From an uncultured Prevotellaceae bacterium (GTDB lineage Bacteria > Bacteroidota > Bacteroidia > Bacteroidales > Bacteroidaceae): DNA of 64,000 nucleotides. The stretch's first letter is position 1, and every line of letters begins with the position of its first letter. Made by a program: the position numbers and the translations under genes. Under the pieces are notes generated by a model, which was not told the DNA's origin, did no database searches, and saw only the letters and a list, made by a program, of their open reading frames with translations. This document shows, piece by piece, positions 30,053-54,456 of this stretch. Location of the stretch: contig ONOG01000010.1 in assembly GCA_900319385.1 (NCBI GenBank), positions 17,022-81,021 of the forward strand. Reading direction: 5' to 3'.

Positions 30053-30062
30053 GATCAGGAGG

Positions 30063-31083: not shown

Positions 31084-32548
31084 TCTTACGACGATTTTTG
31101 AAGAACGTGAACAGAAAGACTGTAAGGCACAGCAGGGTGACGAGGGCTGCGATGCCGTAACCTACCGCGAGGGGAAGGTGAAAGCCTTCGGGGACTATGC
31201 AGATGTAGCTGATGCACACCATAGTCATGAAGATGGCGGGCAGGAGAGTGATGATGAACAGTTTGCGGCGACGTGCCAGCCAAACAGTGATGGTCCAGAG
31301 GGTGACCATGCCGAGGCTTTGGTTGACCCACCCGAAATAGCGCCACAGGATGTCGAAGTTGACAAACATGAGGAAGAAGGAGACGAGGAAGAGGGGGGTT
31401 GACATGAGAATGCGCTGCCAGACGCGGCGCTGGGGCACTCGGAGGAAGTCGGCGGCAATGAGCCGTGCCGAACGGAAGGCGGTGTCACCAGTGGTGATGG
31501 GTGCTGCCACGACGCCGAGGATGGCGAGTACGGCTCCGACGGTACCCAGCCATGAGTGACATATCTGATTGACGATGATAGCTGGATTCATCTTTCCTGT
31601 CTCGGGATTCGTCATCGCCGTGAGTAGTTTTTCGTAGGGAGTAGCACCTTCGACAGCAAGACTGTCGGCGAACTTGATGGCTGCGGCCGCCCAGATGAGA
31701 GCGACGAGTCCCTCGGTGATCATGGCTCCATAGAAGATGGGGCGCCCCAGCCGCTCGTTCTTCATACAGCGTGCCATCATGGGGCTTTGAGTGGCATGGA
31801 ATCCACTGATGGCTCCACAGGCGATGGTGATGAAGAGTATGGGGAAGAGGGGCAGTTTGGCTGCTTGAGGATGATGGTTGGCAAAGGCTTCGGTGATTTC
31901 GGGCAGTTGTCCTTGCTGTGCAAAGATTCCGTAAAGCACGCCCACAGCCATGATGAGGAGGGCAATGCCGAAGACGGGGTAGATGCGCCCAATGATTTTG
32001 TCGATGGGCAGGAGTGTGGCGAGGAGATAATAGAGGAAGATGACGATGCTCCAAACGAGAAAGCTGCCCCACTGTCCCCACGACGTGGTCATTGTGGCAA
32101 GCAGGGTGGCAGGCGTAGTGACGAAGACGGCGCCGACCAGAATCATCAGGACGAGCGAGAAGATAAGAATGAATACTTTTGCTGTTCGTCCGAGCTGCTG
32201 TCCTACCAGTTCGGGTAGGCTGGCGCCACTGCTACGCAGGGAGAGCATACCACTCAGGTAGTCGTGAGTGGCTCCTGCGAAGATGCAGCCAAGCACGATC
32301 CAGAGATAAGCTGCCGGGCCGAACAGGATGCCCTGGATAGCTCCGAAGATAGGGCCTGTGCCTGCGATGTTGAGAAACTGGATGAGGAAAACTTTCCATG
32401 TGGGCATGGGAATGTAATCGACACCGTCCTGCATGGTGTAGCAGGGTGTCTTGCGGCGTGCGTCGGCTCCGAACACTCGTTCAACGAATGTGCCGTAGAG
32501 CAGGAATCCGAGCAGCAGCAGGAGGATGGATGTGAGAAAGGTAATCAT
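31067..32548 (-). CDS. cstA: carbon starvation protein A family transporter (peptide/pyruvate uptake family)
   Basis: 493 aa. N-terminus [27 protein letters not shown] and conserved [17 protein letters not shown] are typical of CstA. Confidence 0.9.
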
Positions 32549-32967
32549 AGTGAAGTAACTATTTTTCCGTGTGACACATGAATTCCGGTGCGAATGATGC
32601 GGGCGGGATTGCCGGCAACGATGGTATTGCTGGGAACGTCTTTGGTTACGACGCTGCCACCGCCGACGATGACTTCGTCACCGATCGTGACACCTGGCAT
32701 GATGATGGCATTGATGCCGATGACGCAATCGTGGCCGATGTGGGTGTCGGCGCGTAGCTGACGGCAATGATCGTGTGCAAGTATGTAGGCCCCTGCAAGC
32801 ACCCATGTGTGGGCTCCGATGTGGATGCCTCGAGGATTGGTGCTCTTATCCAAATGGGCTTTATACGAGAGACGAACGCCCTGAGAAAGGTCCATATGGT
32901 AAATTCGCCGCAAAAGTGCGGGATACCAATACGTTAGTTTTACCCAAATCTTTGTTCTGAGATTCAT
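32545..32967 (-). CDS. hexapeptide-repeat (LbH) O-acyltransferase, WcaF/maltose-acetyltransferase-like
   Basis: [49 protein letters not shown]. Its stop overlaps the cstA start (ATGA). Confidence 0.8.
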
Positions 32968-33059: not shown

Positions 33060-33680
33060 TCAAAAGCAATATGCAAAGTTGACATGTAGTCGAATCTTTT
33101 CGTAGCGCTGCTGCAACGGGATTGACATTTGCGGACAGACCGACAAGGTGCCATGGGCAAGTGATTGGATGCGTAATCGTACGCCGGCGCGAATACGGTC
33201 TTCAGGCTGTCTGAATTCTGGTATATTAGAGAATGCCAGGTATAGTGCTGCTACTTTGAACACACCTACATAGGTTTCGAACGAGCAGCAAGTCTTGTAG
33301 TTAAGGCCTGTGTCGTAGTGAGGATTCAGTGTGGCATGGAGTGAGTAGTTGTCGGCGCTGTCAAAATGGTAGGATGTCGAGACGAATGCTCCATAGTCCT
33401 GATACATGCCATTGTGTGTACTGCCCCAGTAGGCAAGACATTGCAGGCGTAGATGATTGTTCACAAATTGGTGCCTGTAGCCGGCGTAGAGTCTGAAATG
33501 CTGTAGAGAGATTTTCTCAGAGTAGATGCTGTGCTCCAACATCAAGGGCATATGTTTGAAAAAAACATGCTGAAACTGCAAAAACCTGCTGTCTCGCATG
33601 GCTATCCGATTGGTCTGAGCCATTAGGATATTTACGGAACTCACTGAGAGAAATATAAGGATGCAGATGACCTGTCGCAT
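33060..33680 (-). CDS. hypothetical secreted protein, possible small outer-membrane beta-barrel
   Basis: Signal peptide MRQVICILIFLSVSSVNILMAQ from ATG 33680 (the track start 33689 is TTG). Alternating aromatic/hydrophobic pattern, C-terminal F. AT-rich gene; no family recognised. Confidence 0.45.
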   Translation of the reverse strand: MRQVICILIFLSVSSVNILMAQTNRIAMRDSRFLQFQHVFFKHMPLMLEHSIYSEKISLQHFRLYAGYRHQFVNNHLRLQCLAYWGSTHNGMYQDYGAFVSTSYHFDSADNYSLHATLNPHYDTGLNYKTCCSFETYVGVFKVAALYLAFSNIPEFRQPEDRIRAGVRLRIQSLAHGTLSVCPQMSIPLQQRYEKIRLHVNFAYCF

Positions 33681-33685
33681 TGATG

Positions 33686-34273
33686 TCAATAGTTTCGAAT
33701 AATTTGGTTTGTGAGGATTTCGTAGCAGGCATCGTTGGGATGCAAACCATCTAAAGTATAGGAGGGGTTGAGCTGTTCATCAATCAAGAGCATGGAATAG
33801 ACGTCGAGGTACGTCCAACCATGTTTCGCAGCACATCGCTTCATCCGTTGGTTGAAGTCTTTGATGATATTATTTTTGATGTGAGCCATGTCGTTGCGTT
33901 CTGTATTGGTCGGAAGGACAGAGAAGAGATAGATTTTTGCAGCGCCCAAGTTTTCAATGGCCCGTTCATAGCGTTCTGAATACATATCAAGAAAGAGAGG
34001 AATTTCCTCGGGCGTTTCAGATGGCCCCAAATCATTGGTTCCAGTGAGAACCACCACTCTCTGTCCATGAAATTTCCCAGCAAAATCCTCAAGATAGTGG
34101 AGACCACTATTCGACTTTCCATAGTTATCTGTGATGAAAGTGGGAAAAAAACGTCTTACATCCCAGCGCTCCACATTGGAATCACCAATAAAGGCCAGGC
34201 GATAATCATCCTCACGCTTCTCACACGAGGTAAAAATCAATGTACAAAGTATAATGAATAAACTTCTCAACAT
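33686..34273 (-). CDS. SGNH/GDSL-family hydrolase lipoprotein
   Basis: Lipobox IFTSC, block I FIGDSN, block III GTND, C-terminal DGLHPN (DxxH). Confidence 0.8.
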   Translation of the reverse strand: MLRSLFIILCTLIFTSCEKREDDYRLAFIGDSNVERWDVRRFFPTFITDNYGKSNSGLHYLEDFAGKFHGQRVVVLTGTNDLGPSETPEEIPLFLDMYSERYERAIENLGAAKIYLFSVLPTNTERNDMAHIKNNIIKDFNQRMKRCAAKHGWTYLDVYSMLLIDEQLNPSYTLDGLHPNDACYEILTNQIIRNY

Positions 34274-34275
34274 TA

Positions 34276-34884
34276 TCAGTTCGTACCGTCAAACATTGGC
34301 ATGGTGGCCTCGCCTGCATGCGAAATACCCTCGCGGATAAATACTTTCTTGATAGTCAGCCAAAAGATTTTGAAATCCAGGCCAAAAGAGAGATGATCTA
34401 CATACCATACATCATACTCAAATTTCTTCGTAAACGTGATGGCATTCCGACCATGCACCTGAGCCCAACCCGTGATACCGGGACGTACCTCATGGCGCCG
34501 CATCTGCTTAGGTGTGTAGAGCGGAAGATAGCGTACAAGCAAGGGGCGAGGCCCAATAAGCGCCATGTCACCCTTCAGAACGTTGATTAGCTGTGGCAGT
34601 TCGTCAATGGACAGCGAACGAACCAAACGACCCACACGGGTCAGCCGGTCCTTATCTGGGAGCAGCTCACCATCAGCCCCACGGCGGTCGTTCATAGTCT
34701 TGAACTTAATGACTCGGAAGATTTTTCCATCCTTACCAGGGCGATCCTGACAGAAGAAAGCGCCATCGCCACCGTTGGCAATATAAAGTACCAAAGCCAC
34801 CAACAAGATAAACCAGCCAATCAACAGGAGGGCAACAGCCACCAAACAGAAGTCTATGATACGTTTTAGGTAATGTCTATACAT
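34276..34884 (-). CDS. small initiating phosphoglycosyl transferase (bacterial sugar transferase, PglC/WcfS-like)
   Basis: 202 aa with one N-terminal re-entrant helix and IDELPQLINVLKGDMALIGPRP. Confidence 0.9.
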   Translation of the reverse strand: MYRHYLKRIIDFCLVAVALLLIGWFILLVALVLYIANGGDGAFFCQDRPGKDGKIFRVIKFKTMNDRRGADGELLPDKDRLTRVGRLVRSLSIDELPQLINVLKGDMALIGPRPLLVRYLPLYTPKQMRRHEVRPGITGWAQVHGRNAITFTKKFEYDVWYVDHLSFGLDFKIFWLTIKKVFIREGISHAGEATMPMFDGTN

Positions 34885-34890
34885 AAGCCG

Positions 34891-35952
34891 TCAAATTTCA
34901 ACCAGTTCGGGCACCACCACATCCTTTAACTCCAGCCACATCGTGCCCCAACTCAGTCCTAGACCGAACGAAGAACAGAGCAAACGCACCGTCTCGCCTG
35001 AGGTGAGACGCTCACGAATGCGAGTCACCATCAGCGTCGGGATGCTGGCACCGCCAAGGTTACCAAATTCTTCCAAATTATAAGGTACACGCCCTGCCGG
35101 CAGTTTCAGTTTCTTTACCACCCGATCAACAATCAGCTTGTTAGCTTGGTGAATCAGGAAATAATCTACATCCCTATCCTTGTCAATGCCTTCACGCTCC
35201 ATAAACCGAGCCACACTGCGGGGGGGCTTAGAGATAGCAAACGAAAACACCGACATGCCGTCAATCAGCGTGTGCATCGGTGCACGCACAATGCCATGGC
35301 CAAAGTCCTCCTCTACCAGCGACTCAGCAGAGAAAGGATGACGAAAACCGCCATGCGGCGTCATCAATGCCTGTGAGCCACTGCCGTCCGTGTTGAATTC
35401 AATCACCATCGGCCGAACCTGGGAATCATATTCCAAGGCGATGGCAGTACCACCGTCACCGAACAGGGGCACACGGCTTTTGTCCTTCATCGAACCCATT
35501 CGTAGGGCAGTGTCACCCACCAGCAGTAATGCACGCCGCACCTGTCCACTCTGTAGCAAGTTGCCAGCCACAGTCATCGCATACATACATCCACAGCAGC
35601 CCATCGGCAGGTCCAAGCAGAAACAGGTTTCGCTCAGTCCCATACGCTCCTGCAGCAAACAGGCAGTCGGAGGAGTTCGATAGTCACCCGTCACCGATTC
35701 GAAGACAAGTACGTCAACACTCTCCTTCGCCCATTCCAGTTCGTCCAACAGACGTTCAGCAGCAGCCTGACACAAGTCGGACGCACAAACATCCAGCGGA
35801 GCAATGCGCCGCTGGCGTATGCCCACAGTATTGTTGAAAACCTCAGCTTCTTCTGCCGTGAAGAAGGGCAGGTCTTCCGTCTTTACAATCTGTTTCGGAA
35901 CGCAAGCCGACACACCGGCCATCCTTACGTTCTCAATCTTCCATTGCGCCAT
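34891..35952 (-). CDS. 3-oxoacyl-ACP synthase III (FabH-like) family enzyme
   Basis: Thiolase fold, 353 aa. Cys context LDLPMGCCGCMYAM, HQAN and GNLGGASI (His/Asn catalytic contexts). Confidence 0.8.
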   Translation of the reverse strand: MAQWKIENVRMAGVSACVPKQIVKTEDLPFFTAEEAEVFNNTVGIRQRRIAPLDVCASDLCQAAAERLLDELEWAKESVDVLVFESVTGDYRTPPTACLLQERMGLSETCFCLDLPMGCCGCMYAMTVAGNLLQSGQVRRALLLVGDTALRMGSMKDKSRVPLFGDGGTAIALEYDSQVRPMVIEFNTDGSGSQALMTPHGGFRHPFSAESLVEEDFGHGIVRAPMHTLIDGMSVFSFAISKPPRSVARFMEREGIDKDRDVDYFLIHQANKLIVDRVVKKLKLPAGRVPYNLEEFGNLGGASIPTLMVTRIRERLTSGETVRLLCSSFGLGLSWGTMWLELKDVVVPELVEI

Positions 35953-35969
35953 TGCTCAACACACATCGG

Positions 35970-36209
35970 TCAACACTCGACATCATACTTGTGCAAAATC
36001 TCACGTGCAGCCTCGTACGATGTGCAGGCAACAATGTCCTCAGGGTCAAGCATCAGGTCAAACCGATCCTCAATGAGGCTAATGATGTTCAGCTGGTGAA
36101 CCGAGTCCCAGCCGTCAACAGTATCCTTTGTAAAATCCTTGCCCAAATGATCTGCCACATCGCCAAACACTTCGGTGAAGATGGCATTCAGTTGTTCTGT
36201 ATTGTTCAT
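35970..36209 (-). CDS. acyl carrier protein (carrier 1)
   Basis: 79 aa, acidic, GWDSVHQLNIISLIEDRF phosphopantetheinyl-serine context. Confidence 0.75.
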   Translation of the reverse strand: MNNTEQLNAIFTEVFGDVADHLGKDFTKDTVDGWDSVHQLNIISLIEDRFDLMLDPEDIVACTSYEAAREILHKYDVEC

Positions 36210-36428
36210 TCCGTTTTAGCTTTTTCCATTACTTTAAATAGTAACGGAAGGCTCTGGCTTTTATTATTAAAAAAACTAAAAAAAACGGAAGGAAAGCGAA
36301 AAATCGCGAATTCTCCCCTTCTGGAATCAAAGAATTCTTGAATGAATGTTCGATTACCATCAGACGTTTTCTCGTCATGGCAAAGTTTAAAGAAGTTTGA
36401 CTTTGCTCATTTGGCTGGACGAAAACGC

Positions 36429-37787
36429 TCAGTATTGTGGCAGTTGCTGATAGAGTTTCTTGCCGGCTTCGTTCTTGGGTATGCGGTCGATCACGCGTAG
36501 CTGGAAGCTGGTGGCGGGCAGACGTGTAGCTGCAATGAGTGCCTCGCTGACTTCGGCGGAGCGGGTGGCATCGGTGATATAGACAATAAGTTGCTGGTCG
36601 GTTCCGACACAGGCACATTCGTTGCCGACGATGCCTTGAACGATTTGTTCGCATTCGTCGAGTCCTATGCGTTGTCCGTATAGCTTGAGGAAACGACTGA
36701 GCCGACCGACGATATAGTAGCAGCCGTCGTCGTCGCGATAGGCAAGGTCGCCGGTGTGTATGAATCCGTGACGCTCGTCGCCCATGGCTAAATCGGCACG
36801 GGTGTATGCATAGCCGAGGGTGACGTTACGTCCTCGGTAGCACATTTCGCCCTGGACATGGCTGTGGGTGATGGTGTTGCCTTGGGTGTCGATGAGCGAG
36901 AGTTCGCCGTTGGGAACGGCGATTCCGATGCTGCCCACCTTGTCACAGGCCCATTCGGGAGGTAGCCATGCCATGCGGGCGGTGCATTCCGACTGGCCGT
37001 AAGTGGCTATCCAGCGTCGTCCGGTGTCGCGGCAGTATTCTGCAAAACGTCGGTTGAGGTCGGTGGGCATCTTTCCTCCTCCCTGCGTGAGCAGTCGCAG
37101 GTGGGGAAGGTCCATACGGAAGAATCGCATGAGGTTGAGAATGTGGTAGCTGTAGGGTACGCCGGTGAAACTGGTAGCCTGTTCTTCCTTCATGAATTGC
37201 CAGAAGCGGGCGGATGTCATGCTCTGCCCAGTGAGTAGGATGGTGGCTCCAACACTTAGGTGGCTGAAGAGGACGGAGAGTCCCATGGTGTAGTAGAGTG
37301 GCAGGACGAGGAGGGGTCGGTCTTGGTCGGTGAGTTGGAAGAAGGTGGATATGTTGAGGGCGGATGCTTCGATGTTGTCGTAACTGTGGCGGATGAGTTT
37401 GGGACTGCCTGTGCTGCCGGAGGTGGGCAACAGGTGGGAGAGTTGGGGGTAGAGAGCTTCGCCTGCGACTTCGGATGCGAGGGTGAACGATTCTTTTTCC
37501 TTCCAGACGAATACGGGCTGATAGGTATCGTTAAGATGTTCAAGGAGTGTGGGCTCGGTGTGTAGGTTGAGGATGAGGGGAACGAGCCGTTCGGAGGCAA
37601 GGGCGGCCATGATGGTCAGGGCGCATTGGGCTGTGTTTTCGACAAGGAGAAAACAAAGGGTGCGCTCCGTGTATTGTTTCCGAAAGGTTTCGGCCTGTCT
37701 GACAATCTGTCCATAGGTGATCGTATTGCCTTCGGAATCGATGACGGCTGGGTGGTCGGAGGGTATGTGATCTAAGTTGAGGAGCAT
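36429..37787 (-). CDS. adenylate-forming enzyme (acyl/aryl-carrier protein ligase, DltA-like size)
   Basis: LLPTSGSTGSPKLIRHSY (A3), HTGDLAYRDDDGCYYIVGRLSRFLKLYGQRIGLDE (A7/A8). ATG 37787 (MLLNLDH) is preferred; the upstream 19 codons of the track ORF are word-repeat sequence. Confidence 0.85.
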   Translation of the reverse strand: MLLNLDHIPSDHPAVIDSEGNTITYGQIVRQAETFRKQYTERTLCFLLVENTAQCALTIMAALASERLVPLILNLHTEPTLLEHLNDTYQPVFVWKEKESFTLASEVAGEALYPQLSHLLPTSGSTGSPKLIRHSYDNIEASALNISTFFQLTDQDRPLLVLPLYYTMGLSVLFSHLSVGATILLTGQSMTSARFWQFMKEEQATSFTGVPYSYHILNLMRFFRMDLPHLRLLTQGGGKMPTDLNRRFAEYCRDTGRRWIATYGQSECTARMAWLPPEWACDKVGSIGIAVPNGELSLIDTQGNTITHSHVQGEMCYRGRNVTLGYAYTRADLAMGDERHGFIHTGDLAYRDDDGCYYIVGRLSRFLKLYGQRIGLDECEQIVQGIVGNECACVGTDQQLIVYITDATRSAEVSEALIAATRLPATSFQLRVIDRIPKNEAGKKLYQQLPQY

Positions 37788-37905
37788 GGGAAAAAGTGAA
37801 AAGTGAAAATATTCTTTTGGACACACTTCATGTGGAAATTTCACAAATTTGGTCCCAATTAAGCAAATTTAATTTGTAAAATTTTTGAAAACAATTTGAA
37901 TAATT

Positions 37906-37927
37906 TCCCGACGATGTCGGCTTACAT
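37906..37927 (+). repeat. 22-mer TCCCGACGATGTCGGCTTACAT (copy 2 of 2)
   Basis: 20/22 identical to 18969-18990, same orientation, again flanked by word repeats. Confidence 0.8.
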
Positions 37928-37976
37928 TAAAAGTGAAAAACTTCAAACTTCAAATTTTAAATTTCAAAATTGAAAG
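37928..37976. repeat. low-complexity word repeats (AAAAGTG, CTTCAAA x2, AATTT/CAAAAT words)
   Basis: taaaagtgaaaaacttcaaacttcaaattttaaatttcaaaattgaaag. A related gaaaaagtgaaaagtgaaaat lies at 37790-37810. Confidence 0.75.
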
Positions 37977-37980
37977 TATA

Positions 37981-38733
37981 TTAGATTGAAGCACAGCCAT
38001 CGACTCCGAGTATCTGTCCCGAGATGTAGGAGGCGCGGTCGCTGGCCAGGAAGGCACAGGCTGTAGCTATGTCCTGTGGGGTGCCAAGTCGTCCGAGGGC
38101 GATGCGGCTGATGCGCTGGTCAATCTTTTCTCCGCTGGACTCGTAGAGTTCGGCAAAGCGTTCGGTCTTTACGATGCCTGGTGCCACTGCGTTGACTCGG
38201 ATTCCTTGCGCTGCCAATTCCTTGGCGGCGGACTTGGTGAGGGCTATGATGGCTCCCTTGGTTGCGGAATAGGCTACTTGTCCTGGCGAGCCGAGGACTG
38301 CTGTGACGGATGCTATATTGACGATACTTCCACCACCAGTCTTGGCCATGAGACGGGAAACAAGCTGAATAAGTTCAATGACGGCGATAACGTTGATGCG
38401 GAACATGAGTTCGGTCTCTGCGCGCAGAATCATGCCTATCTTGCGGTTGAAGACGACGCCGGCATTGTTGACAAGCACGTCAATGCGGCCTTCTTGCTTG
38501 AAGACTTGCATCATGGCTGTTTTAACGGCGGCAGGATCGGTGACGTCGAAGCATAGAGGTATGACGCGGGTGTTGGTACCAGCGGCAAGCACTCTCGCCC
38601 ACTCTTCCATCACGCCTTGCTGGCGGTCGGCGGCATAGACGATTGCTCCGTCGTGAGCCATCTGCTCGGCAATGGCACGTCCAATGCCTTGTGCTGCACC
38701 TGTGACGATACAAACTTTATGGGATAGCAACAT
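37981..38733 (-). CDS. SDR-family oxidoreductase (FabG-like ketoreductase) 1
   Basis: VTGAAQGIGRA, NNAG, YSATK. ATG 38733 (MLLSHKVCIVTG) is preferred over the track TTG at 38757. Confidence 0.85.
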   Translation of the reverse strand: MLLSHKVCIVTGAAQGIGRAIAEQMAHDGAIVYAADRQQGVMEEWARVLAAGTNTRVIPLCFDVTDPAAVKTAMMQVFKQEGRIDVLVNNAGVVFNRKIGMILRAETELMFRINVIAVIELIQLVSRLMAKTGGGSIVNIASVTAVLGSPGQVAYSATKGAIIALTKSAAKELAAQGIRVNAVAPGIVKTERFAELYESSGEKIDQRISRIALGRLGTPQDIATACAFLASDRASYISGQILGVDGCASI

Positions 38734-38753
38734 ATGAAATGTAGAGATTTTTA

Positions 38754-39506
38754 TCAAGAGAGCGTACGTCCCCCATCTATCTTGATGGATGTTCCTGTCA
38801 CCCAGCTACTTGCATCAGAAAGAAGGTATATGATACCGTATGCCACGTCTTCGGGACGGCCAAATCGGCGAAGGGGGTATTTCTGACATTCGGCTTCGCG
38901 TTGCTCATCTGTCCAACTTAGGGTGGCAGAACCTTCCGTTTCGATGATGGCCGGATTGACACTGTTGCAACGTATGCCTCGCTTAGCAAGTTCGAGTGCT
39001 GCTGTTCTCATCATGGCATCAAGTGCGCTCTTGGTAGAGGCATAAATACCATTGGCTGGTGTCACTCTATAGACACCGGCTGCCGACGATACAAAGACAA
39101 TGGATGCACGAGGTGCAAACTTGCGTTTTTTAAGTATATAACGAAGAAGCAGAACTGGTGCATTGAGATTCACTTGCTGCATCTGTGTCAGTTTCTCTTC
39201 TGTATAGGCAAGCAGTGGCACCAATCCAATTACACCAAACGACAGTACAAGACCATCGACCGTGGTCAACATCGATACGAGCCGTTCTACATCAGCAAGC
39301 AAAGTGAGATCGGCACAAACCATTTGGTGCCCTTCTCCCGGAAGTTGAGTGAATGTCTCTGTCAGACGCTGTTGGTTTCGCCCGGTGATGAAAACAGTGG
39401 CTCCCATGTGAGCGCATTGGATGGCTGTTGCTCGTCCAATTCCGCTGGATGCACCCGTAATGAGTATGTTTTTTTGAGCAAGAGTGAATGGGGATGGTGT
39501 GCTCAT
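38754..39506 (-). CDS. SDR-family oxidoreductase (FabG-like ketoreductase) 2
   Basis: ITGASSGIGRA and YASTK. Its start overlaps the stop of the upstream carrier gene (ATGA). Confidence 0.85.
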   Translation of the reverse strand: MSTPSPFTLAQKNILITGASSGIGRATAIQCAHMGATVFITGRNQQRLTETFTQLPGEGHQMVCADLTLLADVERLVSMLTTVDGLVLSFGVIGLVPLLAYTEEKLTQMQQVNLNAPVLLLRYILKKRKFAPRASIVFVSSAAGVYRVTPANGIYASTKSALDAMMRTAALELAKRGIRCNSVNPAIIETEGSATLSWTDEQREAECQKYPLRRFGRPEDVAYGIIYLLSDASSWVTGTSIKIDGGRTLS

Positions 39507-39730
39507 TGCTTCGATGCGACGATGTCGTAGAGTTCTTGAAGTGTGTGTGTCTTTCGCATTTCTTCAGGCGAAAGTACGATGTCATATTCATCGTCAATCA
39601 TCGTGATGATGAGCAGTGCTGTGAGCGAGGTCCATTCGTCTAAGTCACGAAAACGGGTCTCGGGGGTCAATTCGACACTGAGCATGTCAAACTGATCGGC
39701 AACGTTGTCGATAAATGCTTGGATATCCAT
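39503..39730 (-). CDS. acyl carrier protein (carrier 2)
   Basis: 75 aa, acidic, LDEWTSLTALLIITMIDDEY serine context. Confidence 0.7.
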   Translation of the reverse strand: MDIQAFIDNVADQFDMLSVELTPETRFRDLDEWTSLTALLIITMIDDEYDIVLSPEEMRKTHTLQELYDIVASKQ

Positions 39731-39734
39731 AGAA

Positions 39735-40376
39735 TTAAATTTTGTTGATTGAAAACACTTTTGCTGGCGAGCCCATCACGGTTGTCCCGCTCTTTACTCG
39801 ACGAACGACAAAGCTGAGAGCTCCGACTCGTGAGTTGGACTCGATGATAACACCGTGATTAAGAACAGAACCTGTGTAGATATCAACTTCGTCCATCAAT
39901 TGTGTCCCGCCCACCATGGTGACATGAGTGTCCACTCGATTCCAGTCGCCCATGACAGAGTCGTGTCCTATGACTGTATACGACTGGATGAGGTTGTATT
40001 TTCCTATCTTGGCTTCTGCTCCGATAGAGGTATAGGCACCAATCACAGTACCCTCGCCAATGGTGACGTTAGTTCCAATCCGAGCAGTCCGATGTATCAT
40101 GGTGTAGAATTGCCCCCCACGTTCAATGATTCTTTCCATACATTTGCGACGCGAATGCCCACCAATGGAGCATACAAAACAATCGTCAGCTACGGGTTGA
40201 TAGGCTGAGATGGTTCCCAGCATGGGAGGGTATCCTTTAAAATTGTCAAGGGCCTGGATATTATCGTCGATAAAACCTTTTATTATAAAGTCTGTGCCAA
40301 AACCCAGGCTCTCTTGGGCCATATCGAAGAAAGTGCGACCCATTCCTCCGGCACCGATAATTATCAAATGTTTCAA
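39735..40376 (-). CDS. NeuD/PglD-type sugar N/O-acyltransferase (LbH with N-terminal nucleotide-binding subdomain)
   Basis: N-terminal KHLIIIGAGGMGR followed by hexapeptide repeats (IGTNVTIGEGTVIGAYTSIGAEAKIG). The start codon is TTG at 40376; no in-frame ATG preserves the G-loop. Confidence 0.8.
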   Translation of the reverse strand: MKHLIIIGAGGMGRTFFDMAQESLGFGTDFIIKGFIDDNIQALDNFKGYPPMLGTISAYQPVADDCFVCSIGGHSRRKCMERIIERGGQFYTMIHRTARIGTNVTIGEGTVIGAYTSIGAEAKIGKYNLIQSYTVIGHDSVMGDWNRVDTHVTMVGGTQLMDEVDIYTGSVLNHGVIIESNSRVGALSFVVRRVKSGTTVMGSPAKVFSINKI

Positions 40377-40478: not shown

Positions 40479-41642
40479 TCAGTTAGAATGACTTGAGGTT
40501 GAATGTTGCACAACATCAAGAAAGATGGATGAAAGCTGTCGTCCGATGACTTCAGCTCCGAATCGTTGAAGACACCGTTCTGCAATGTTTCTTCGGTCAT
40601 AAGTTAAGAAGTTCTGCTGCATGAACACCAAAGCATGAAAGAAGGCATCTGCATCGTTGATAGGGCAAAGCAAGCCGTCTGCTTCCTGTACAATAGATTC
40701 CGGTCCGCCACAACGTGTTGCAACGATAGGCAGCCCACAAGCCATGGCCTCTATACATACCACACTAAAAGTCTCCATCTGGGAACTCAGCAGAAATACG
40801 TCACTCTCCAGAAACTGTCGAGCTATTTCTGATTTTGTCAGTCGTCCCAGAAAACGAACCTGACCGTCAAGTCCCAAACGATGAACCTGTGACTCCAAAC
40901 GTGTACGTTCAGTTCCTTCACCAATCAAGACAAGTTCCCAGTTGCTATCTACACCGTTGAGATTGGACAGGGCATCCAGCATCACGTCAAAACGTTTTCC
41001 ATTGTTCAGAGAACCCACCGTAATATATCGAACACGAGAACGACGTCGCGGTTTTTCATTATACTGAAAATCGCTTCCCACAACATTATACACAACTTCA
41101 GACGGCTGCCCAATCAGTTTAATAATATTCTGCTGGAGAGCTGGGGAAACTGTGATGAGACGATCTAATTTAGTATAGATTTTTCTAATACTCTGAATCA
41201 TGGATTCTGGAAGATTCTTCTTAGCCAGCTCCGACCAGTGTTCAATGGCAACAAGCGGAACACCATAACGCTGCTTCAGTTGGACTGCATTAGCGGTTAC
41301 AAACAAATAATGGCTGTATAGGATATCAGGTCTCCCAAAACGCTTGCTGGCATATTCATATACCTTGCGCAGCTGCCACTGCTCAACTTTCCAACGGATA
41401 CTCTTACCCAACAGACCTATGACACTGCTTGGTATTAAAAAGCAGTTGACAAAATGTATTCCTCTATCTGTATGGCAGCTAATACCTGGCTTGCGCCAAA
41501 ACAACCTAAAGCGTGTATCGACACTAAGTACAACCACCTCATTACCTACAGAAACCAATGCTTCGGCCTGGTCCCTTTCAAAACAGCCCCATTGCGGAGA
41601 ACGTGCTGTCGGAAATCCTCGTGCTATCAGAAATACCTTCAT
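40479..41642 (-). CDS. GT4 (GT-B fold) glycosyltransferase
   Basis: 387 aa. C-terminal SQMETFSVVCIEAMACGLPIVATRCGGPESIV (E-x7-E region). Confidence 0.85.
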   Translation of the reverse strand: MKVFLIARGFPTARSPQWGCFERDQAEALVSVGNEVVVLSVDTRFRLFWRKPGISCHTDRGIHFVNCFLIPSSVIGLLGKSIRWKVEQWQLRKVYEYASKRFGRPDILYSHYLFVTANAVQLKQRYGVPLVAIEHWSELAKKNLPESMIQSIRKIYTKLDRLITVSPALQQNIIKLIGQPSEVVYNVVGSDFQYNEKPRRRSRVRYITVGSLNNGKRFDVMLDALSNLNGVDSNWELVLIGEGTERTRLESQVHRLGLDGQVRFLGRLTKSEIARQFLESDVFLLSSQMETFSVVCIEAMACGLPIVATRCGGPESIVQEADGLLCPINDADAFFHALVFMQQNFLTYDRRNIAERCLQRFGAEVIGRQLSSIFLDVVQHSTSSHSN

Positions 41643-42811
41643 GTCTCACATTCATCATTTATCAGATTCTTCTTCAACACATCGAGAAACCCATGCCCGT
41701 ACTTCAAATCCGGTTCGACATAATTGCCTTCAGCCCATTCGTTCCACGACTGCAGGAAAAGAATACGATGTTCTGCTTCTTTGTCTTTTACTAAAGATAG
41801 AGCTGTCTGCATCTGCCGGTCAAACTCCTCTGGAGTGCTATCAACATAAATACGAGCCTTCTTGCCGCTACGCGGGGTACGATCCCAACAAGGCAACAGC
41901 GTCGGAAAAACATTCTCCTGACGGTCACGCTCTACATACATATATTTATTGACTTTCTTTTGCGAACATTTAGAAACAACAAACTGGTGCAACACATTTC
42001 GCACAACAAATCGCTTTACATAATCAAAGAGACTACGCGAGAGATCTTCAGCCCGATGATAGCCTCGTGAGTTAACGGCATCGAATCCTGCTTTTATCAG
42101 CCTTGGATACAGTTCTGAACTCTGATCAGGAATGGATTTCCGCAATACATCCCTAATCGTCAAATCTTTCTCATGTATATAGTTTTGCTGAACAGCTACA
42201 AAATAAATGCCAGGAATACCATTCTTGTTGGCCAGTTCCTGCCAACGCTTGATAAACGCACTCACATCAGGCAAATCCCAAGGACGGTACACAACGAACA
42301 AGGGTTTCCCATCGACATGGATATAGCGTGGGTCACGAAAAGCAGGTAATACAGCTTCAAAATGTTTGATGTCATCAGCCTCACTATACCGCTGCTCCAT
42401 CAGTACTGAGAGTTCCATTTTGCGCGACCCTACATGCCATGACTTATTGGTCCACGACTCATTAGCCCATGCTAGACAGAAGGGAAAATCAGGCTTTCCG
42501 CTTTTCAGTACCTCAGAAAAAGGACGCTCCAGAATCTGACGACCATCACCAAACCAGTAGTGCCAGTAGCAAAAACCTTCAATGCCAGCCTCACGAGCCA
42601 TGTCTGCCTGAGCCTGGCGCACCTCAGGCATACGCAAGTCATAATAGCCAAGGTCGGCAGGTACTCGTGGTTGGTAATGGCCTTTGAATAGGGATTTAGC
42701 CTTTCCAACATTGGTCCATTCTGTAAATCCTTTGCCCCACCAACGATCGTTTTCTGGAATAGGGTGAAACTGTGGTAAGTAGAATGCCAGTACTCGAGCT
42801 TTTCTGTTCAT
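41639..42811 (-). CDS. WbsX-family (GH99-like fold) glycosyltransferase
   Basis: AFYLPQFHPIPENDRWWGKGFTEWTNV N-terminal signature. Confidence 0.75.
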   Translation of the reverse strand: MNRKARVLAFYLPQFHPIPENDRWWGKGFTEWTNVGKAKSLFKGHYQPRVPADLGYYDLRMPEVRQAQADMAREAGIEGFCYWHYWFGDGRQILERPFSEVLKSGKPDFPFCLAWANESWTNKSWHVGSRKMELSVLMEQRYSEADDIKHFEAVLPAFRDPRYIHVDGKPLFVVYRPWDLPDVSAFIKRWQELANKNGIPGIYFVAVQQNYIHEKDLTIRDVLRKSIPDQSSELYPRLIKAGFDAVNSRGYHRAEDLSRSLFDYVKRFVVRNVLHQFVVSKCSQKKVNKYMYVERDRQENVFPTLLPCWDRTPRSGKKARIYVDSTPEEFDRQMQTALSLVKDKEAEHRILFLQSWNEWAEGNYVEPDLKYGHGFLDVLKKNLINDECET

Positions 42812-43562: not shown

Positions 43563-44624
43563 CTACTTCGTGGAAATAGATTGAAGTTGTGCCTGTATCA
43601 TGCGGGTTTTGACTGTGAGGCTGTGATGGTCTGTCTGTTCTGCGGCGTTGAGACGGGTGGTGTCGGCGAGTTGTTGCTGGATGTACTTGATGGCTGCGTC
43701 GATGCGTGCCTGATGCTGGTGGTAGTAGTCGATGCCGATGTGGTAGAGCATGACGCAGAAGTCGGTGACGTGCTGAAGGTTGTAGATTGCATAGGTGAGG
43801 GGGAGGGCCCTGCGCATTTCTTGAGGCTGACTTCCGTCGGATTGTATCTGGGCATAGAGTCGTCGGTCGGCAAATTGTTGCATGAGGAAGTTGAAATGTG
43901 GAGTATCTCCGATATAAAGGTCGATGGCGCAGGACATGACGTCGTAGGCTACGGAAAGGTTGTTTGGGGCTTGGCTTTGCTTGATGCCGAGGGGGCTTGT
44001 GCGCAGCCAACGGGCGAACTGACGGAACCACTTTTGCAGTTTGCGGTCGGTGGATCGATCAAGCTGACCATACGAACGCATGAGGCGGATGCTCTCTATG
44101 ATATCAACAAAGACATAGGCTTCGATGATGCCAAAGTAGTTGCCTCGATTGTTATTGAGATTTTTTACAAACTGGGCGTAGTCGAAATTAGGGTTCATAC
44201 GGGTTTGTTTATCAATAAACCACGCCTGAATATCAGTGAGCCACTGATTCGCATATTTCTGGTTTCGGGTAAGATGGTAGGCCTGGCTGAGGAGACGAGT
44301 TCGCCTGGCAAGTGCATTAATCTTCTTGAGGTCGTAGGTATCGCCTTCAGGATTGCGCAGGCAGTCGCGATAGACGTAGGGGGAATCGGGGGAGAGGGTG
44401 TCGGGCCAAAAGTACATGCTGAAACTCTCGAAGTTATGAGGGTCTCCTGAGATGCTGACTTTCTTGTCGGTGACAACGGGAGATGGTGTACCGATGTAGG
44501 TATCAACTTCGGGAAAGATGGCTGAACGATTGAGGCGCTGAAGATTCCAAATCAGGGTAGATGATTCTTGTGCTTGGCCAAGGATAGCTACTAGGAAAAG
44601 AAAGATGGTGAGAAGATGATTCAT
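43563..44624 (-). CDS. secreted alginate-lyase-family (alpha/alpha toroid polysaccharide lyase-like) protein
   Basis: Signal peptide MNHLLTIFLFLVAILGQAQ. General resemblance to AlgL-type proteins (..YFWPD.., ..AWF.., QAPNNLSVAYDV). Family call from recollection only; the expected NNH position reads NNL. Confidence 0.55.
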   Translation of the reverse strand: MNHLLTIFLFLVAILGQAQESSTLIWNLQRLNRSAIFPEVDTYIGTPSPVVTDKKVSISGDPHNFESFSMYFWPDTLSPDSPYVYRDCLRNPEGDTYDLKKINALARRTRLLSQAYHLTRNQKYANQWLTDIQAWFIDKQTRMNPNFDYAQFVKNLNNNRGNYFGIIEAYVFVDIIESIRLMRSYGQLDRSTDRKLQKWFRQFARWLRTSPLGIKQSQAPNNLSVAYDVMSCAIDLYIGDTPHFNFLMQQFADRRLYAQIQSDGSQPQEMRRALPLTYAIYNLQHVTDFCVMLYHIGIDYYHQHQARIDAAIKYIQQQLADTTRLNAAEQTDHHSLTVKTRMIQAQLQSISTK

Positions 44625-54428: not shown

Positions 54429-54456
54429 AACTTTTCACTTTTAACTTTTCACTTTT
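54429..54456. repeat. perfect 14-bp tandem duplication (AACTTTTCACTTTT x2) filling the whole intergenic spacer
   Basis: 54429-54442 = 54443-54456. Lies between the stop of the first transferase gene (54455) and the wza start (54423). Confidence 0.9.

Follow-up and report, generated by a model that had tools for sequence, protein, structure and literature searches.

A short hydroxy-acyl chain on the first amino sugar is the most likely product of a fatty-acid-like cassette in a rumen Bacteroidales capsule locus

The wfpB-G genes of Flavobacterium psychrophilum encode a PglC homologue, two KAS III enzymes, one ACP, one reductase, and a PglD homologue, and accompany a proven Qui2NAc4N-(3,5-dihydroxyhexanoyl) residue (PMC6519341). 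The cassette described here is of the same known kind as Flavobacterium wfpC-G and Vibrio wbeK-O, and its initiating transferase shares 57% identity with Campylobacter PglC. Two KAS III serve two extensions in F. psychrophilum; the present cassette has one KAS III and a proposed ligase-loaded starter. Gut Bacteroidales, among them Bacteroides thetaiotaomicron, very often carry the same kit, and the number of its extension modules ranges from zero to three. A literature search found no paper on the homologous Bacteroidales cassettes or their biochemistry.

The window is the whole 64-kb stretch of DNA analysed, and includes a rumen Bacteroidales capsule locus. The eight consecutive minus-strand genes reported in an earlier note were all found as ORFs (Table 1), and their families were assigned by Pfam and NCBIfam. 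The motifs quoted there (TSGSTGSPK, GRLSRFLKLYGQRI, the carrier serines, TGxxxGIG, YxxxK, and IIGAGG) were all located in the translations; TGxxxGIG and YxxxK are present in SDR1 as well as SDR2. The catalytic motifs of all eight genes are intact and conserved. A pN/pS of about 0.10 against conspecific contigs shows the cassette genes to be in use. In agreement with the earlier note, the window yielded no dehydratase, enoyl reductase, malonyl transacylase, or cytoplasmic thioesterase. The cassette is the capsule locus's own small fatty-acid-like assembly line, which most likely makes a short hydroxy-acyl chain and joins it to the first amino sugar of the polysaccharide. Somewhat favoured is a reading in which the block works as a dedicated type-II polyketide-like line without dehydration, its hydroxy-acyl product serving as a substituent of the first sugar in a capsular polysaccharide of the Wzx/Wzy type. 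The core proposal of that note was that an acid is activated, extended once on a dedicated carrier, reduced, and passed as a hydroxy-acyl group to the NeuD/PglD-type transferase, all of this apart from housekeeping fatty-acid synthesis; it fits every computational test run.

Table 1. Positions of the cassette genes, spacers, and neighbouring genes in the window.
Feature	Position	Strand	Length	Proposed role	Basis
Small hexapeptide-repeat acetyltransferase	32545..32967	-	140 aa		Hexapep match
GDSL/SGNH hydrolase, lipoprotein-type signal sequence	33686..34273	-			Lipase_GDSL_2; N-terminus MLRSLFIILCTLIFTSC
Small monotopic phosphoglycosyl transferase, PglC-like (initiating transferase)	34276..34884	-	202 aa	Loader of N-acylated sugar-1-phosphate onto undecaprenyl phosphate	Bac_transf E 4e-58
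KAS III-type condensing enzyme, ACP2-linked clade	34891..35952	-	353 aa	Single decarboxylative extension	ACP_syn_III + ACP_syn_III_C
ACP2, acidic carrier	35970..36209	-	79 aa	Ligase partner	PP-binding 17.4 bits, below gathering score
AT-rich non-coding spacer, ligase-ACP2	36210..36428	.			Sequence read
Adenylate-forming ligase	36429..37787	-	452 aa	Acyl-ACP2 ligase for starter acid	AMP-binding E 2e-42 (Pfam)
AT-rich non-coding spacer, SDR2-ligase	37788..37980	.			Contains TAAATTTG
SDR2, FabG-like 3-oxoacyl-ACP reductase	37981..38733	-	250 aa	Reductase of ACP2 starter	adh_short_C2 E 9e-61
SDR1, divergent classical short-chain reductase	38754..39506	-	250 aa	Extension-module ketoreductase	adh_short_C2 E 2e-48
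ACP1, acidic carrier	39503..39730	-	75 aa	Acceptor of extended chain and donor to transferase	PP-binding 24.5 bits, above gathering score
NeuD/PglD-type left-handed beta-helix N-acyltransferase	39735..40376	-	213 aa	Off-loading enzyme	Hexapep + PglD_N above gathering score
GT4 glycosyltransferase	40479..41642	-			Pfam
WbsX-family glycosyltransferase	41639..42811	-			Pfam

The ligase, ACP2, and SDR2 occur together. The ligase gene has an ACP2-type carrier gene beside it in all 37 close loci that are complete, and the same holds for most loci with identity as low as 40%; SDR2 accompanies the ligase in 36 of the 37, including loci without KAS III. Homologue alignments place the probable start of the ligase at ATG 37787, inside a GTG-start mechanical ORF (36429-37844), and that of SDR2 at ATG 38733, the mechanical ORF running to 38757. 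The ligase motif TSGSTGSPK (from residue 141), the hinge motif GRLSRFLKLYGQRI (residue 380), and the lysine of the C-terminal PKNEAGK (K462) are invariant in the alignment. Among solved enzymes, oxalyl-CoA ligases and MenE come closest to it; these nearest relatives act on oxalate, malonate, and o-succinylbenzoate. They match only at E 1e-31, so the ligase substrate is not readable from them, and this was counted against the model. In 88 sequences, conservation of the ACP2 WDS motif, which contains Ser36, is 90% or more. Profile-profile comparison (hhalign) aligned the ACP2 and ACP1 families with 97% probability (E 1e-10), serine on serine. SDR2 matches adh_short_C2/KR in Pfam, and its best PDB matches are almost all FabG (3e-44 downward); it scores 206 on the TIGR01830 FabG model, under the cut-off of 298. 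The NNAG motif, Y163, and K167 are conserved.

KAS III, ACP1, and SDR1 form the other group. KAS III scores on the FabH models are under their cut-offs; its closest structure is 4efi (E 5e-65), with E. coli FabH at 1e-29, and the Cys119-His268-Asn298 triad is conserved (55 sequences). The KAS III genes that come straight after ACP2 group in a clade of their own, with 62-80% identity to the window gene (26 cases), against 32-42% for the genes set between ACP1 and SDR1, in the order ACP1-KAS-SDR1 (11 cases). The score of ACP1 is far under the AcpP equivalog cut-offs, and its Ser35 lies within a conserved W-S/T-S-L motif. The two carriers are acidic, as the earlier note had described, with serines in WTSL (ACP1, pI 4.05) and WDSV (ACP2, pI 4.12) contexts. 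SDR1 also matches adh_short_C2/KR; among solved structures, it comes closest to tropinone-reductase-like proteins and FabG (E 1e-32), and TGASSGIG, Y155, K159, and an Arg after strand beta-2 are conserved.

Co-occurrence was examined in the 37 complete loci whose ligase is at least 47% identical. Of these, 23 have KAS III together with the ACP1-type and SDR1-type genes and 14 have none of the three, with a Fisher p of 1.6e-10 that is uncorrected for shared ancestry; ACP1 occurs only in loci having KAS III and SDR1. The numbers of carriers and of reductases usually equal the KAS number plus one. The commonest KAS, carrier, and reductase counts are 0,1,1 and 1,2,2; hand counts gave 2,3,3 (L034, L041, L054) and 3,4,4 (L047). 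The rule is broken in L001 and L003 (2 KAS, 2 carriers, 3 reductases) and in L040 (3, 3, 2). On these gene-content grounds, the layout is a predicted starter triad (ligase, ACP2, and FabG-like SDR2) with an optional extension set (KAS III, ACP1, and SDR1). This modularity accounts for the two carriers and two reductases, which had seemed unlike the textbook cases. Three distant loci (L021, L078, L100) have an ACP, two SDRs, and a ligase without KAS III; therefore, the reductases need not act on KAS products. The question whether the cassette moves between polysaccharide loci was answered by the survey of related loci, in which it is portable between them.

The transferase scores 141.5 bits on TIGR03570 (NeuD/PglB/VioB), under the cut-off of 160.8. 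Of the solved structures, VioB 7txp is nearest (E 1e-26), with further matches to WeeI, PglB, PerB, and PglD. In 51 family members, the IIGAGG loop at the N-terminus (residues 6-11) and the GHD motif (H138) are conserved, and TTG 40376 is the start because the conserved loop lies upstream of the first ATG. The transferase shares 65-73% identity with that of the window in one-extension loci, against 52-59% where KAS III is absent, and these ranges do not overlap. No such split was seen for the ligase (61 vs 62%), ACP2 (62 vs 62%), or the initiating transferase (68 vs 68%). By this comparison, the putative off-loading transferase reads the product, since its identity, unlike that of the other three, tracks the module content.

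The recipient might be a sugar or a lipid-linked primer, both of which had been suggested. The initiating transferase matches the N,N'-diacetylbacillosaminyl-1-phosphate transferase 8g1n over its full length (57% identity, E 6e-70), and DELPQ (D94-E95) and GPRP are invariant. Directly downstream of it, an aminotransferase gene is found in 12 of 21 genome loci and in L022-L024. The top PDB matches of this aminotransferase are 1o61 and 4ztc (E 1e-87), which we take to be C. jejuni PglE. Because of the likeness to PglC and this downstream aminotransferase, a UDP-4-amino sugar, acylated ahead of the initiating-transferase step, is the most likely recipient, rather than the lipid-linked primer. The window itself has no DegT-type aminotransferase by tblastn over all 64 kb, and no aminotransferase or sugar 4,6-dehydratase in Pfam scans of 48 window ORFs, a set with 45 of the 66 mechanical ORFs of at least 180 aa but not a 977-aa ORF (59530-62463), a 202-aa ORF (63300-63908), or some that overlap scanned genes from the other strand or in a different frame. 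This absence was counted against the model. The missing acceptor pathway noted earlier is thus a real gap in the window; since many relatives carry the PglC-like transferase with the aminotransferase directly after it, the gap belongs to this lineage and not to the system. The dehydratase and aminotransferase of this strain would have to be encoded beyond the window. There is a precedent in B. fragilis, whose dehydratase gene ungD2 is not part of the CPSA operon but located elsewhere (PMC13063421).

With a UDP-4-amino sugar as the preferred recipient, the following pathway is proposed. The ligase would adenylate a small carboxylic acid and load it onto ACP2, its partner in the surveyed loci. 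The starter might most simply be a 3-oxo acid such as acetoacetate, which SDR2 may reduce while on ACP2. The ACP2-linked KAS III, which co-occurs with ACP1, would then condense the acyl group once with malonyl-ACP1, with the malonyl group from the housekeeping FabD, and SDR1 would reduce the 3-oxo group so formed. Starting from a C4 acid, this would leave a 3,5-dihydroxyhexanoyl-type chain on ACP1; this product is possible, but a guess. As suggested by its family and neighbours, the PglD/VioB-like transferase would take the acyl group off ACP1 and attach it to a UDP-2-acetamido-4-amino-2,4,6-trideoxyhexose, at the 4-amino group. The PglC-like transferase would pass the acylated sugar phosphate to undecaprenyl phosphate, starting the repeat unit, and the conserved GT4 and WbsX would extend the acylated primer. 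Several points were counted against this model. The KAS III primer classically comes from acyl-CoA, not acyl-ACP. To our knowledge, acetoacetate is no obvious abundant metabolite in Bacteroidales, and the PglD-family enzymes characterised so far are acyl-CoA users; we know of acyl-ACP use only as a prediction, WfpG included.

The two unusually long spacers described earlier are real, AT-rich, and non-coding, but they are not conserved in the cassette. The SDR2-ligase gap is 2-15 nt in relatives. The ligase-ACP2 gap ranges over 0-517 nt, usually below 100 nt, and is 219-220 nt only in this lineage. No Rfam family matches either spacer; TAAATTTG resembles what we take to be the Bacteroidetes -7 promoter motif. 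On the downstream side, the GDSL hydrolase occupies the place of the relatives' DegT aminotransferase, and was not counted as a member of the acyl pathway. The order transferase, GDSL, unknown, hexapeptide, cstA is repeated in conspecific contigs (L025, L027-L030). In about twenty related loci, a homologue of the 140-aa hexapeptide protein (37-67% identity) stands between the initiating transferase and KAS III or ACP2, and such loci include some with and some without KAS III. On the upstream side, WbsX (54-65% identity) and GT4 (36-47%) directly precede the transferase gene in many related loci. Together with the cassette, these two genes (40479..42811) make up a conserved block in many loci, and their products probably add the next sugars onto the acylated primer. 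Across Bacteroidales, the sets of KAS III, ACP, and reductase vary from 0 to 3, and this number would determine how long the acyl chain is.

The cassette forms the end of a Wzx/Wzy-type polysaccharide locus, which extends from about 55063 to 32545 and is bounded by clpB and cstA. From its start, the locus encodes a second small phosphoglycosyl transferase, Wza-like, Wzz-like, and Wzy-like proteins, a 516-aa protein without Pfam match, an FrhB-like protein with a pyruvyl transferase, a GT2, an alginate-lyase-like protein, a hexapeptide acetyltransferase, and WbsX with a GT4; these are followed by the cassette, and then by a GDSL lipoprotein, a protein without assigned family, and a small hexapeptide transferase. 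The eight minus-strand ORFs described in the earlier note were all recovered in Pfam and NCBIfam profile searches, each in the family named there. Proteins identical to those of the window are also encoded on rumen metagenome contigs; the organism belongs to the uncultured Bacteroidales of rumen or gut and is known only from metagenomes. The cassette genes are under purifying selection in the window lineage, with a pN/pS of ~0.10 against the conspecific contigs (L025 and L027-L030).

Cassette genes and other features of the window, with positions counted from its start
Feature	Position	Strand	Assignment or remark
Transferase (NeuD/PglD-type)	39735-40376	-	PglD_N + hexapeptide
ACP1	39503-39730	-	small acidic carrier, pI 4.05
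SDR1	38754-39506	-	classical SDR
SDR2	37981-38757	-	classical SDR, FabG-like
Ligase	36429-37844	-	AMP-binding
ACP2	35970-36209	-	small acidic carrier, pI 4.12
KAS III	34891-35952	-	KAS III family
Initiating transferase	34276-34884	-	202-aa Bac_transf phosphoglycosyl transferase
Small hexapeptide transferase	32545-32967		in related loci both with and without KAS III
Hexapeptide transferase	42886-43491		extra hexapeptide gene of the locus
GDSL lipoprotein and 209-aa protein	33060-34273	-
ORF in ligase-ACP2 spacer	36229-36377	-	49 codons
Second phosphoglycosyl transferase	54455-55063	-	202-aa Bac_transf
FrhB/FdhB-like iron-sulfur protein	46742-47890	-
Polysaccharide pyruvyl transferase	45658-46731	-
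GT2 ORF	44621-45907
Alginate-lyase-family protein	43563-44624	-	PF05426
clpB	55373-57973	+	bounds the locus
cstA	31067-32548		bounds the locus
Gene group downstream of cstA	25547-30079	-
977-aa ORF	59530-62463

Several neighbouring genes were also observed. The second phosphoglycosyl transferase opens the locus, ahead of Wza and Wzz; it shares only ~34% identity with the initiating transferase of the cassette and resembles WbaP more than PglC. Two initiating enzymes are thus encoded in a single locus. The alginate-lyase-family protein (E 2e-55), encoded between the GT2 and the hexapeptide acetyltransferase, has an N-terminal signal-like sequence and may be a polymer-trimming enzyme. The FrhB/FdhB-like gene adjoins that of the pyruvyl transferase. 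The GT2 ORF overlaps the pyruvyl transferase ORF by ~250 nt; the real GT2 start therefore lies further downstream. The conserved gene group downstream of cstA, which is also present in the conspecific contigs, encodes a GT2 with a long N-terminal extension, a DUF4922 protein with a weak ATP-adenylyltransferase-like C-terminus, a SpoIID-like protein, and an MFS/BT1 transporter.

The characteristic motifs of the cassette enzymes are intact. KAS III contains Cys119, His268, and Asn298, and both SDRs contain Tyr-x3-Lys and the glycine-rich loop; these residues are conserved in the respective families from the related loci. The PDB neighbours of SDR2 are almost all FabG. In the ligase, the TSGSTGSPK motif, the hinge motif, and the C-terminal lysine K462 are invariant in the family alignment. 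Together with the adjacent carrier gene (37/37 close loci and most of the distant ones), these motifs point to an ANL member of a putative acyl-carrier-loading subtype. The nearest solved ligases are oxalate, malonate, and o-succinylbenzoate ligases (E 1e-31 to 1e-16); reading the starter acid off these structures was rejected because they are too distant. ACP1 matches the Pfam PP-binding profile at 24.5 bits; ACP2, at 17.4 bits and below the gathering score, is the sole weak Pfam assignment in the cassette. The two carriers are only 22% identical and both have W-D/S/T-S motifs, with W-D-S at least 90% conserved in the ACP2 family (88 sequences). Profile-profile alignment of the ACP2 and ACP1 families by hhalign gave a probability of 97% and an E of 1e-10, with Ser aligned on Ser. 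The GHD motif (H138) and the N-terminal IIGAGG of the transferase are conserved in 51 relatives; H138 may correspond to the catalytic His of PerB and PglD. Homologue alignments upheld the TTG start of the transferase, and shifted the starts of the ligase and SDR2, probably to ATG 37787 and ATG 38733, respectively.

The two long spacers, which had been pointed out as unusual, are real, AT-rich, and non-coding, but they are not a feature of the cassette as such. Because the ligase-ACP2 gap ranges from 0 to 517 nt in the relatives, they are a peculiarity of the window lineage. The transferase-ACP1 gap in the window is 4 nt. An Rfam search of both spacers gave no match at E <=0.1, and sigma-70 promoter-like and terminator-like sites were not commoner in them than in shuffles. 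A conserved RNA or regulatory element was rejected on these results and on the variable gap length. The 49-codon ORF in the ligase-ACP2 spacer (MTRKRLMVIEHSF...) has a hydrophobic tail; given the lack of spacer conservation, it is probably spurious. A 57-aa ORF that one gene caller annotated in the L025 spacer may share its frame.

The co-occurrence survey suggested in the earlier note was made on 21 related loci from genomes, 80 from metagenomes, and a few more obtained by exact protein look-up, with the ORFs classified by comparison with the window proteins. The core set comprises 37 loci (window included) with at least 47% ligase identity and complete on both sides. Modules were counted within 8 kb of the ligase; this replaced a gap-limited clustering, which under-counted where gaps exceeded 1.5 kb. 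In the complete loci, an ACP2-type carrier goes with the ligase in 37/37 cases and a FabG-like SDR2 in 36/37; the three genes are called here the starter triad. KAS III, the ACP1-type carrier, and the SDR1-type reductase, called here the extension set, are all present in 23/37 and all absent in 14/37 complete loci. The extension set is thus all-or-none (Fisher p = 1.6e-10, ignoring shared ancestry). The minimal loci, which have no KAS III, show the order transferase-SDR2-ligase-ACP2-PGT, where PGT is the initiating transferase. Compared with them, the window form has ACP1-SDR1 added after the transferase and KAS III added after ACP2.

Some related loci contain 2 or 3 KAS III genes and further carriers and reductases. 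In L041, for example, the order is transferase-ACP1-SDR1-SDR2-ligase-ACP2-KAS-ACP-KAS-SDR-PGT-aminotransferase. The numbers of KAS, carrier, and reductase genes are mostly 0,1,1 or 1,2,2; counts by hand gave 2,3,3 in L034, L041, and L054, and 3,4,4 in L047. The exceptions are L001 and L003 with 2,2,3, and L040 with 3,3,2. L001 and L003 contain a separate NeuD'-ACP-KAS-SDR-SDR module, apart from the SDR2-ligase-ACP2-KAS block. The KAS III genes fall into context-specific clades: the copies directly after ACP2 (n=26) share 62-80% identity with the window enzyme, and those set between ACP1 and SDR1 in the order ACP1-KAS-SDR1 (n=11) only 32-42%. Distant loci, including one in a Lachnospiraceae genome, have a carrier, one or two SDRs, and the ligase, without KAS III. 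Four of these (L021 6407-11449, the Lachnospiraceae genome, and L078, L095, and L100) show ~40% ligase identity and encode a carrier, two SDRs, and the ligase; some adjoin PglD-like, PglC-like, and DegT genes. The ligase-carrier-reductase core therefore extends beyond Bacteroidota.

The transferase passes both the PglD_N (33.9 vs 23.4) and the Hexapep thresholds of Pfam, and scores 141.5 bits against TIGR03570 (NeuD/PglB/VioB), below the cut-off of 160.8. Its closest solved relatives are VioB, WeeI, PglB, PerB, and PglD, which are all N-acyltransferases of 4-amino-4,6-dideoxy sugars; the PDB matches include VioB at 1e-26, LpxA structures (to the helix domain of the transferase) at 3e-14, and PglD at 4e-9. 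The scores suggest a diverged NeuD/PglB/VioB relative, consistent with a different acyl donor. A NeuD-type transferase was found within 8 kb of the ligase in 32/37 complete loci. Among the transferase, the ligase, ACP2, and the initiating transferase, only the first tracks module content. Its identity to the window protein is 52-59% in minimal loci and 65-73% in one-extension loci; the corresponding values are 61% and 62% for the ligase, 62% and 62% for ACP2, and 68% and 68% for the initiating transferase. Such divergence would be expected of a transferase that recognises the finished product, with one starter chemistry common to all loci.

In five of the related loci, the 8 kb around the ligase contain no NeuD-type gene. 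Three of these five have a gene for a sugar-transfer-associated ATP-grasp protein (PF14397, E 1e-43 to 1e-49) downstream of the cassette (L034 15594-16697, L035 12766-13812, L054 16240-17322), either ~30-60 nt past the last cassette gene or with an overlap of a few nt. The next gene in L035 and L054 encodes a small protein, which in L034 is reached only after another ~1.3 kb. This protein clearly matches GNAT in L054 (E 3e-10), matches it weakly and below threshold in L035 (E 0.0014), and shows no GNAT match in L034. About 9 kb downstream, L034 also contains a distant NeuD-type gene (29% identity). The ATP-grasp and the small protein may be an alternative means of attaching the acyl product.

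Over 202 residues, the initiating transferase shares 57% identity (E 6e-70) with Campylobacter concisus PglC (8g1n), an N,N'-diacetylbacillosaminyl-1-phosphate transferase, and its D94-E95 dyad (DELPQ) and GPRP are invariant. The length of 202 aa, these motifs, and the full-length similarity to PglC indicate a small monotopic PglC-type enzyme. An aminotransferase gene directly follows the PglC-like gene in 12/21 genome loci; in L022-L024, three of the related loci, a 413-aa DegT aminotransferase is found at this position. The best PDB matches of the relatives' aminotransferase are 1o61 and 4ztc (E 1e-87), whose titles read only "aminotransferase" and which we take to be C. jejuni PglE. The relatives would thus encode a trio of PglC, presumed PglE, and PglD-like enzymes, with the PglD-like gene wrapped in acyl-carrier genes.

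In the window, the lack of an amino-sugar pathway noted earlier was borne out: no DegT aminotransferase was detected by tblastn across the full 64 kb, and no aminotransferase or sugar 4,6-dehydratase in Pfam scans of 48 ORFs, including 45 of the 66 mechanical ORFs of at least 180 aa. The 977-aa ORF and a number of overlapping alternative-frame ORFs were omitted from these scans. Neither PglF nor PglE, and hence no amino-sugar pathway of the kind that goes with this class of cassette, was found in the window by these searches. Likewise, no dehydratase was found in the Pfam-annotated flanks of the related loci L022 and L111. The B. fragilis dehydratase gene ungD2, which lies outside the CPSA operon, is a precedent for an unlinked dehydratase (PMC13063421). 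At the position of the relatives' aminotransferase, the window encodes the GDSL lipoprotein and a 209-aa protein without family match, a pair confined to the window lineage (L025, L027-L030). The GDSL hydrolase was considered as the missing thioesterase, and was rejected on its lipoprotein signal sequence and its restriction to this lineage.

The earlier proposal was that an acid is activated, extended once, reduced, and transferred as a hydroxy-acyl group. Module co-occurrence and family evidence support and sharpen it, and the general mechanism predicted from them is considered reasonably probable. The ligase would load a small acid on ACP2, where SDR2 would reduce it. The ACP2-linked KAS III would condense the ACP2-borne acyl group once with malonyl-ACP1, for which the housekeeping FabD would supply the malonyl group, as in many type II polyketide systems, and SDR1 would reduce the new ketone. 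The transferase would then acylate the 4-amino group of a UDP-2-acetamido-4-amino-2,4,6-trideoxyhexose with the ACP1-borne chain; the PglC-like enzyme would transfer the sugar phosphate to undecaprenyl phosphate, and the conserved GT4 and WbsX would continue the repeat unit. Loci without KAS III keep the FabG-like reductase, and therefore the simplest starter is a 3-oxo acid such as acetoacetate. Our guess is that this starter would yield a 3-hydroxybutanoyl group in the minimal loci and a 3,5-dihydroxyhexanoyl-type chain in the window. A polyhydroxy chain agrees with the lack of both a dehydratase and an enoyl reductase. The specific product is a doubtful prediction.

The loci of gut and rumen Bacteroidales may represent a previously undescribed "one module per extension" type II line. 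A ligase-primed starter on its own carrier would pass 0-3 stand-alone sets of KAS III, carrier, and ketoreductase, each used once and ordered by carrier-specific recognition; the PglD-like enzyme would then move the polyhydroxy-acyl chain (C4, C6, C8 and so on) from the last carrier to a bacillosamine-type sugar. This wider proposal is tentative, and its chances are put a little short of even.

Other explanations were weighed against these data. The cassette draws on the protein families of type II fatty-acid synthesis, and the genes might be the organism's housekeeping fabH, fabG, and acpP, lying by chance inside a polysaccharide locus. However, every protein of fatty-acid synthesis type falls below the NCBIfam equivalog cut-offs: KAS III scores 184 bits against 292 for TIGR00747 (FabH), the SDRs 206 and 131 against 298 for TIGR01830 (FabG), and the carriers 18-28 against 66-106, with 18 against 70 for TIGR00517 (AcpP). 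The motifs and low mutual identity of the carriers also argue against housekeeping genes, as does the extension set, which is missing from 14 complete loci and present in 2 or 3 copies in others. The earlier note had reported no dehydratase, enoyl reductase, transacylase, or thioesterase, and the locus indeed contains no other genes of fatty-acid synthesis: no FabD, FabZ, FabI/K, or FabF goes with the cassette, and fabD, fabF, and fabZ were never seen beside the cassette genes in the related loci listed. In these loci the cassette is always set between glycosyltransferases and an initiating transferase. Housekeeping fatty-acid synthesis was rejected on the cut-offs and the variable presence, and is practically out of the question. 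A more serious alternative is that two independent acyl pathways lie side by side. The starter triad would make one acyl group, KAS III with ACP1 and SDR1 would make 3-hydroxybutanoyl-ACP1 from acetyl-CoA and malonyl-ACP1, and different transferases would deliver the products to different positions or sugars. A carrier, KAS III, and reductase are self-sufficient in principle, as in F. psychrophilum wfpC-F, which has no ligase; L001 and L003 keep a NeuD'-ACP-KAS-SDR-SDR module physically separate, and the locus has two extra hexapeptide transferases. Yet loci of the window type have only one NeuD-type transferase, diverged from that of the minimal loci, which is unexpected if the ACP2 product is delivered unchanged. 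The window KAS III also belongs to the clade always found directly after ACP2, not ACP1, and the small hexapeptide gene occurs irrespective of KAS III. Two separate pathways are thus regarded as unlikely.

The ligase might instead provide the extender. In that case malonate or another dicarboxylate would be loaded on ACP2, in place of a malonyl-CoA:ACP transacylase, and KAS III would join acetyl-CoA and malonyl-ACP2. Oxalate-CoA and malonyl-CoA ligases are among the nearest solved structures, the cassette has no transacylase, and KAS III is encoded right after ACP2. On the other hand, the 14 complete loci without KAS III retain the ligase, ACP2, SDR2, and the transferase, and malonyl-ACP offers no ketone to a FabG-like reductase. 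An extender ligase would also leave ACP1 without a role, and the structural similarities of the ligase are weak (E 1e-31) and cover a generic adenylation core; this role is judged highly unlikely. It is also quite unlikely that the acyl chain goes to something other than the sugar amino group, by O-acylation of the polysaccharide, to the lipid-linked primer, or to a lipid anchor. No aminotransferase or dehydratase was found in the window, the NeuD-type gene is missing near the ligase in five related loci, an ATP-grasp gene follows the cassette in L034, L035, and L054, and the cassette is not beside a PglC-like gene in loci of the Bacteroides thetaiotaomicron type. However, the transferase has the PglD_N nucleotide-sugar-binding domain, and its closest solved relatives all acylate 4-amino sugars; the adjacent initiating transferase is close to PglC, and the top PDB matches of the relatives' adjoining aminotransferase are presumably PglE. 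A single ligase-primed chain on the amino group is the preferred reading.

The closest described system, by its published description, is wfpB-G of the Flavobacterium psychrophilum O-polysaccharide, which encodes a PglC homologue, two KAS III, one carrier, one reductase, and a PglD homologue (PMC6519341). The polysaccharide contains Qui2NAc4N-(3,5-dihydroxyhexanoyl), which was proven by NMR (PMC6519341). WfpB is 57% identical to C. jejuni PglC, the same figure as for the window enzyme and C. concisus PglC. Both systems have KAS III, a dedicated carrier (a 76-aa ACP in wfp), and a 3-ketoacyl-ACP reductase, without dehydratase or enoyl reductase; both have a PglD homologue, predicted in wfp to move the acyl group from ACP to UDP-Qui2NAc4N. 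By contrast, wfp combines two KAS III with one ACP and one reductase, lacks an adenylating ligase, and presumably starts from acetyl-CoA. The window combines a ligase-primed starter module, which includes a carrier and a FabG-like reductase of its own, with one KAS III and a further carrier and reductase. Homologues of pglE and pglF are also encoded in the wfp locus, whose pathway is likewise a prediction. By analogy, its two KAS III for two extensions would match a reading of one KAS per extension.

The wbeK-wbeO genes of Vibrio cholerae O1 (rfbKLMNO, VC0248-VC0252) place a carrier, the ligase WbeL (471 aa), reductases, and an acyltransferase in an O-antigen locus (PMC3441752, PMC12208996). 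As in the route proposed for the window, an unusual hydroxy-acyl group is amide-linked to a 4-amino-4,6-dideoxy sugar (PMC3441752, PMC12208996). Unlike the window, wbe lacks KAS III and has a single carrier; its pathway, too, has been called putative. The acceptor is GDP-perosamine in an ABC-transporter pathway, and not a PglC-type primer sugar. Morona et al. reportedly placed the wbe reductases in other families (iron alcohol dehydrogenase, LuxC-like) in 1995.

The Campylobacter PglF-PglE-PglD-PglC pathway shares with the window the 57% identity of the initiating transferase to PglC and the PglD_N and hexapeptide fold of the transferase, and with the window's relatives the aminotransferase that we take to be PglE from its matches at E 1e-87. 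However, PglD uses acetyl-CoA, whereas in the window the PglD-like gene is set among seven genes for a carrier-borne donor; the window transferase is closer to VioB than to PglD. The Campylobacter product is an N-glycan, and that of the window would be a polysaccharide repeat unit. LpxA and LpxD also have a left-handed beta-helix, and take hydroxy-acyl groups from acyl-ACP onto UDP-sugars. LpxA structures match the window helix domain better than PglD does, which may reflect the repeat alone; LpxA and LpxD differ in the N-terminal domain and use long-chain acyl groups from the housekeeping AcpP. Type II polyketide initiation modules (R1128 ZhuH/ZhuG) combine a KAS III with a dedicated priming carrier apart from the main carrier, and borrow malonyl transfer from fatty-acid synthesis. 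These modules feed an iterative KS-CLF to give aromatic polyketides; the window has no KS-CLF, its product would go to a sugar, and there appears to be one KAS III, carrier, and reductase per extension. With dedicated carriers, apparently intact chain-building enzymes, and a transferase encoded with a carrier, the cassette would fall into the class of wfpC-G and wbeK-O. It is a variant of the ACP-dependent N-acyl cassettes and not a new category; the modular 0-3 series, the carrier-per-module layout, and the very wide spread in gut Bacteroidales make it a worthwhile experimental target. A literature search on this cassette in Bacteroides, or on ACP-dependent 3-hydroxybutanoyl synthesis in O-antigen loci, found nothing relevant.

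The ligase family yielded more than 7,600 clusters (90% identity) at E <=1e-10 among 8,000 candidates scored. A human-gut member of the family matched more than 7,800 clusters at E <=1e-50, some of which hold hundreds to more than 1,000 sequences; one of its clusters is named Bacteroides thetaiotaomicron. The closest ligase homologues in genomes (61-64% identity) are from Paludibacteraceae genomes assembled from metagenomes. In the Bacteroides thetaiotaomicron-type locus, the same seven cassette genes are found in the same order amid different neighbours. The cassette therefore moves between polysaccharide loci, which answers the question of a mobile cassette raised earlier. On the contigs of this type, L111-L113 (145-3590 and 13334-20476), genes for an NDP-hexose 2,3-dehydratase, a GFO oxidoreductase, and an aminotransferase adjoin the cassette, with Wza, Wzz, a 191-aa transferase, a formyltransferase, a PIG-L deacetylase, and another aminotransferase downstream. 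The cassette may serve other amino sugars elsewhere, for example in L111-L113.

Immune modulation, phage resistance, and colonisation all depend in part on the capsular polysaccharides of gut Bacteroidales. To our knowledge, very few of their structures have been determined. If the proposed model is true, the reducing-end sugar would carry an unusual polyhydroxy N-acyl epitope, and the number of KAS III sets would be a genomic read-out of its chain length. The transferase would be the first PglD-family enzyme tied to carrier-borne donors from a module-per-extension system, and the model would explain loci without dehydratase, enoyl reductase, transacylase, and thioesterase genes. If each module indeed serves one extension, strains would diversify their capsule antigens by gaining or losing modules, a genetic switch acting on the length of the acyl chain; thousands of strains would be concerned, Bacteroides thetaiotaomicron among them.
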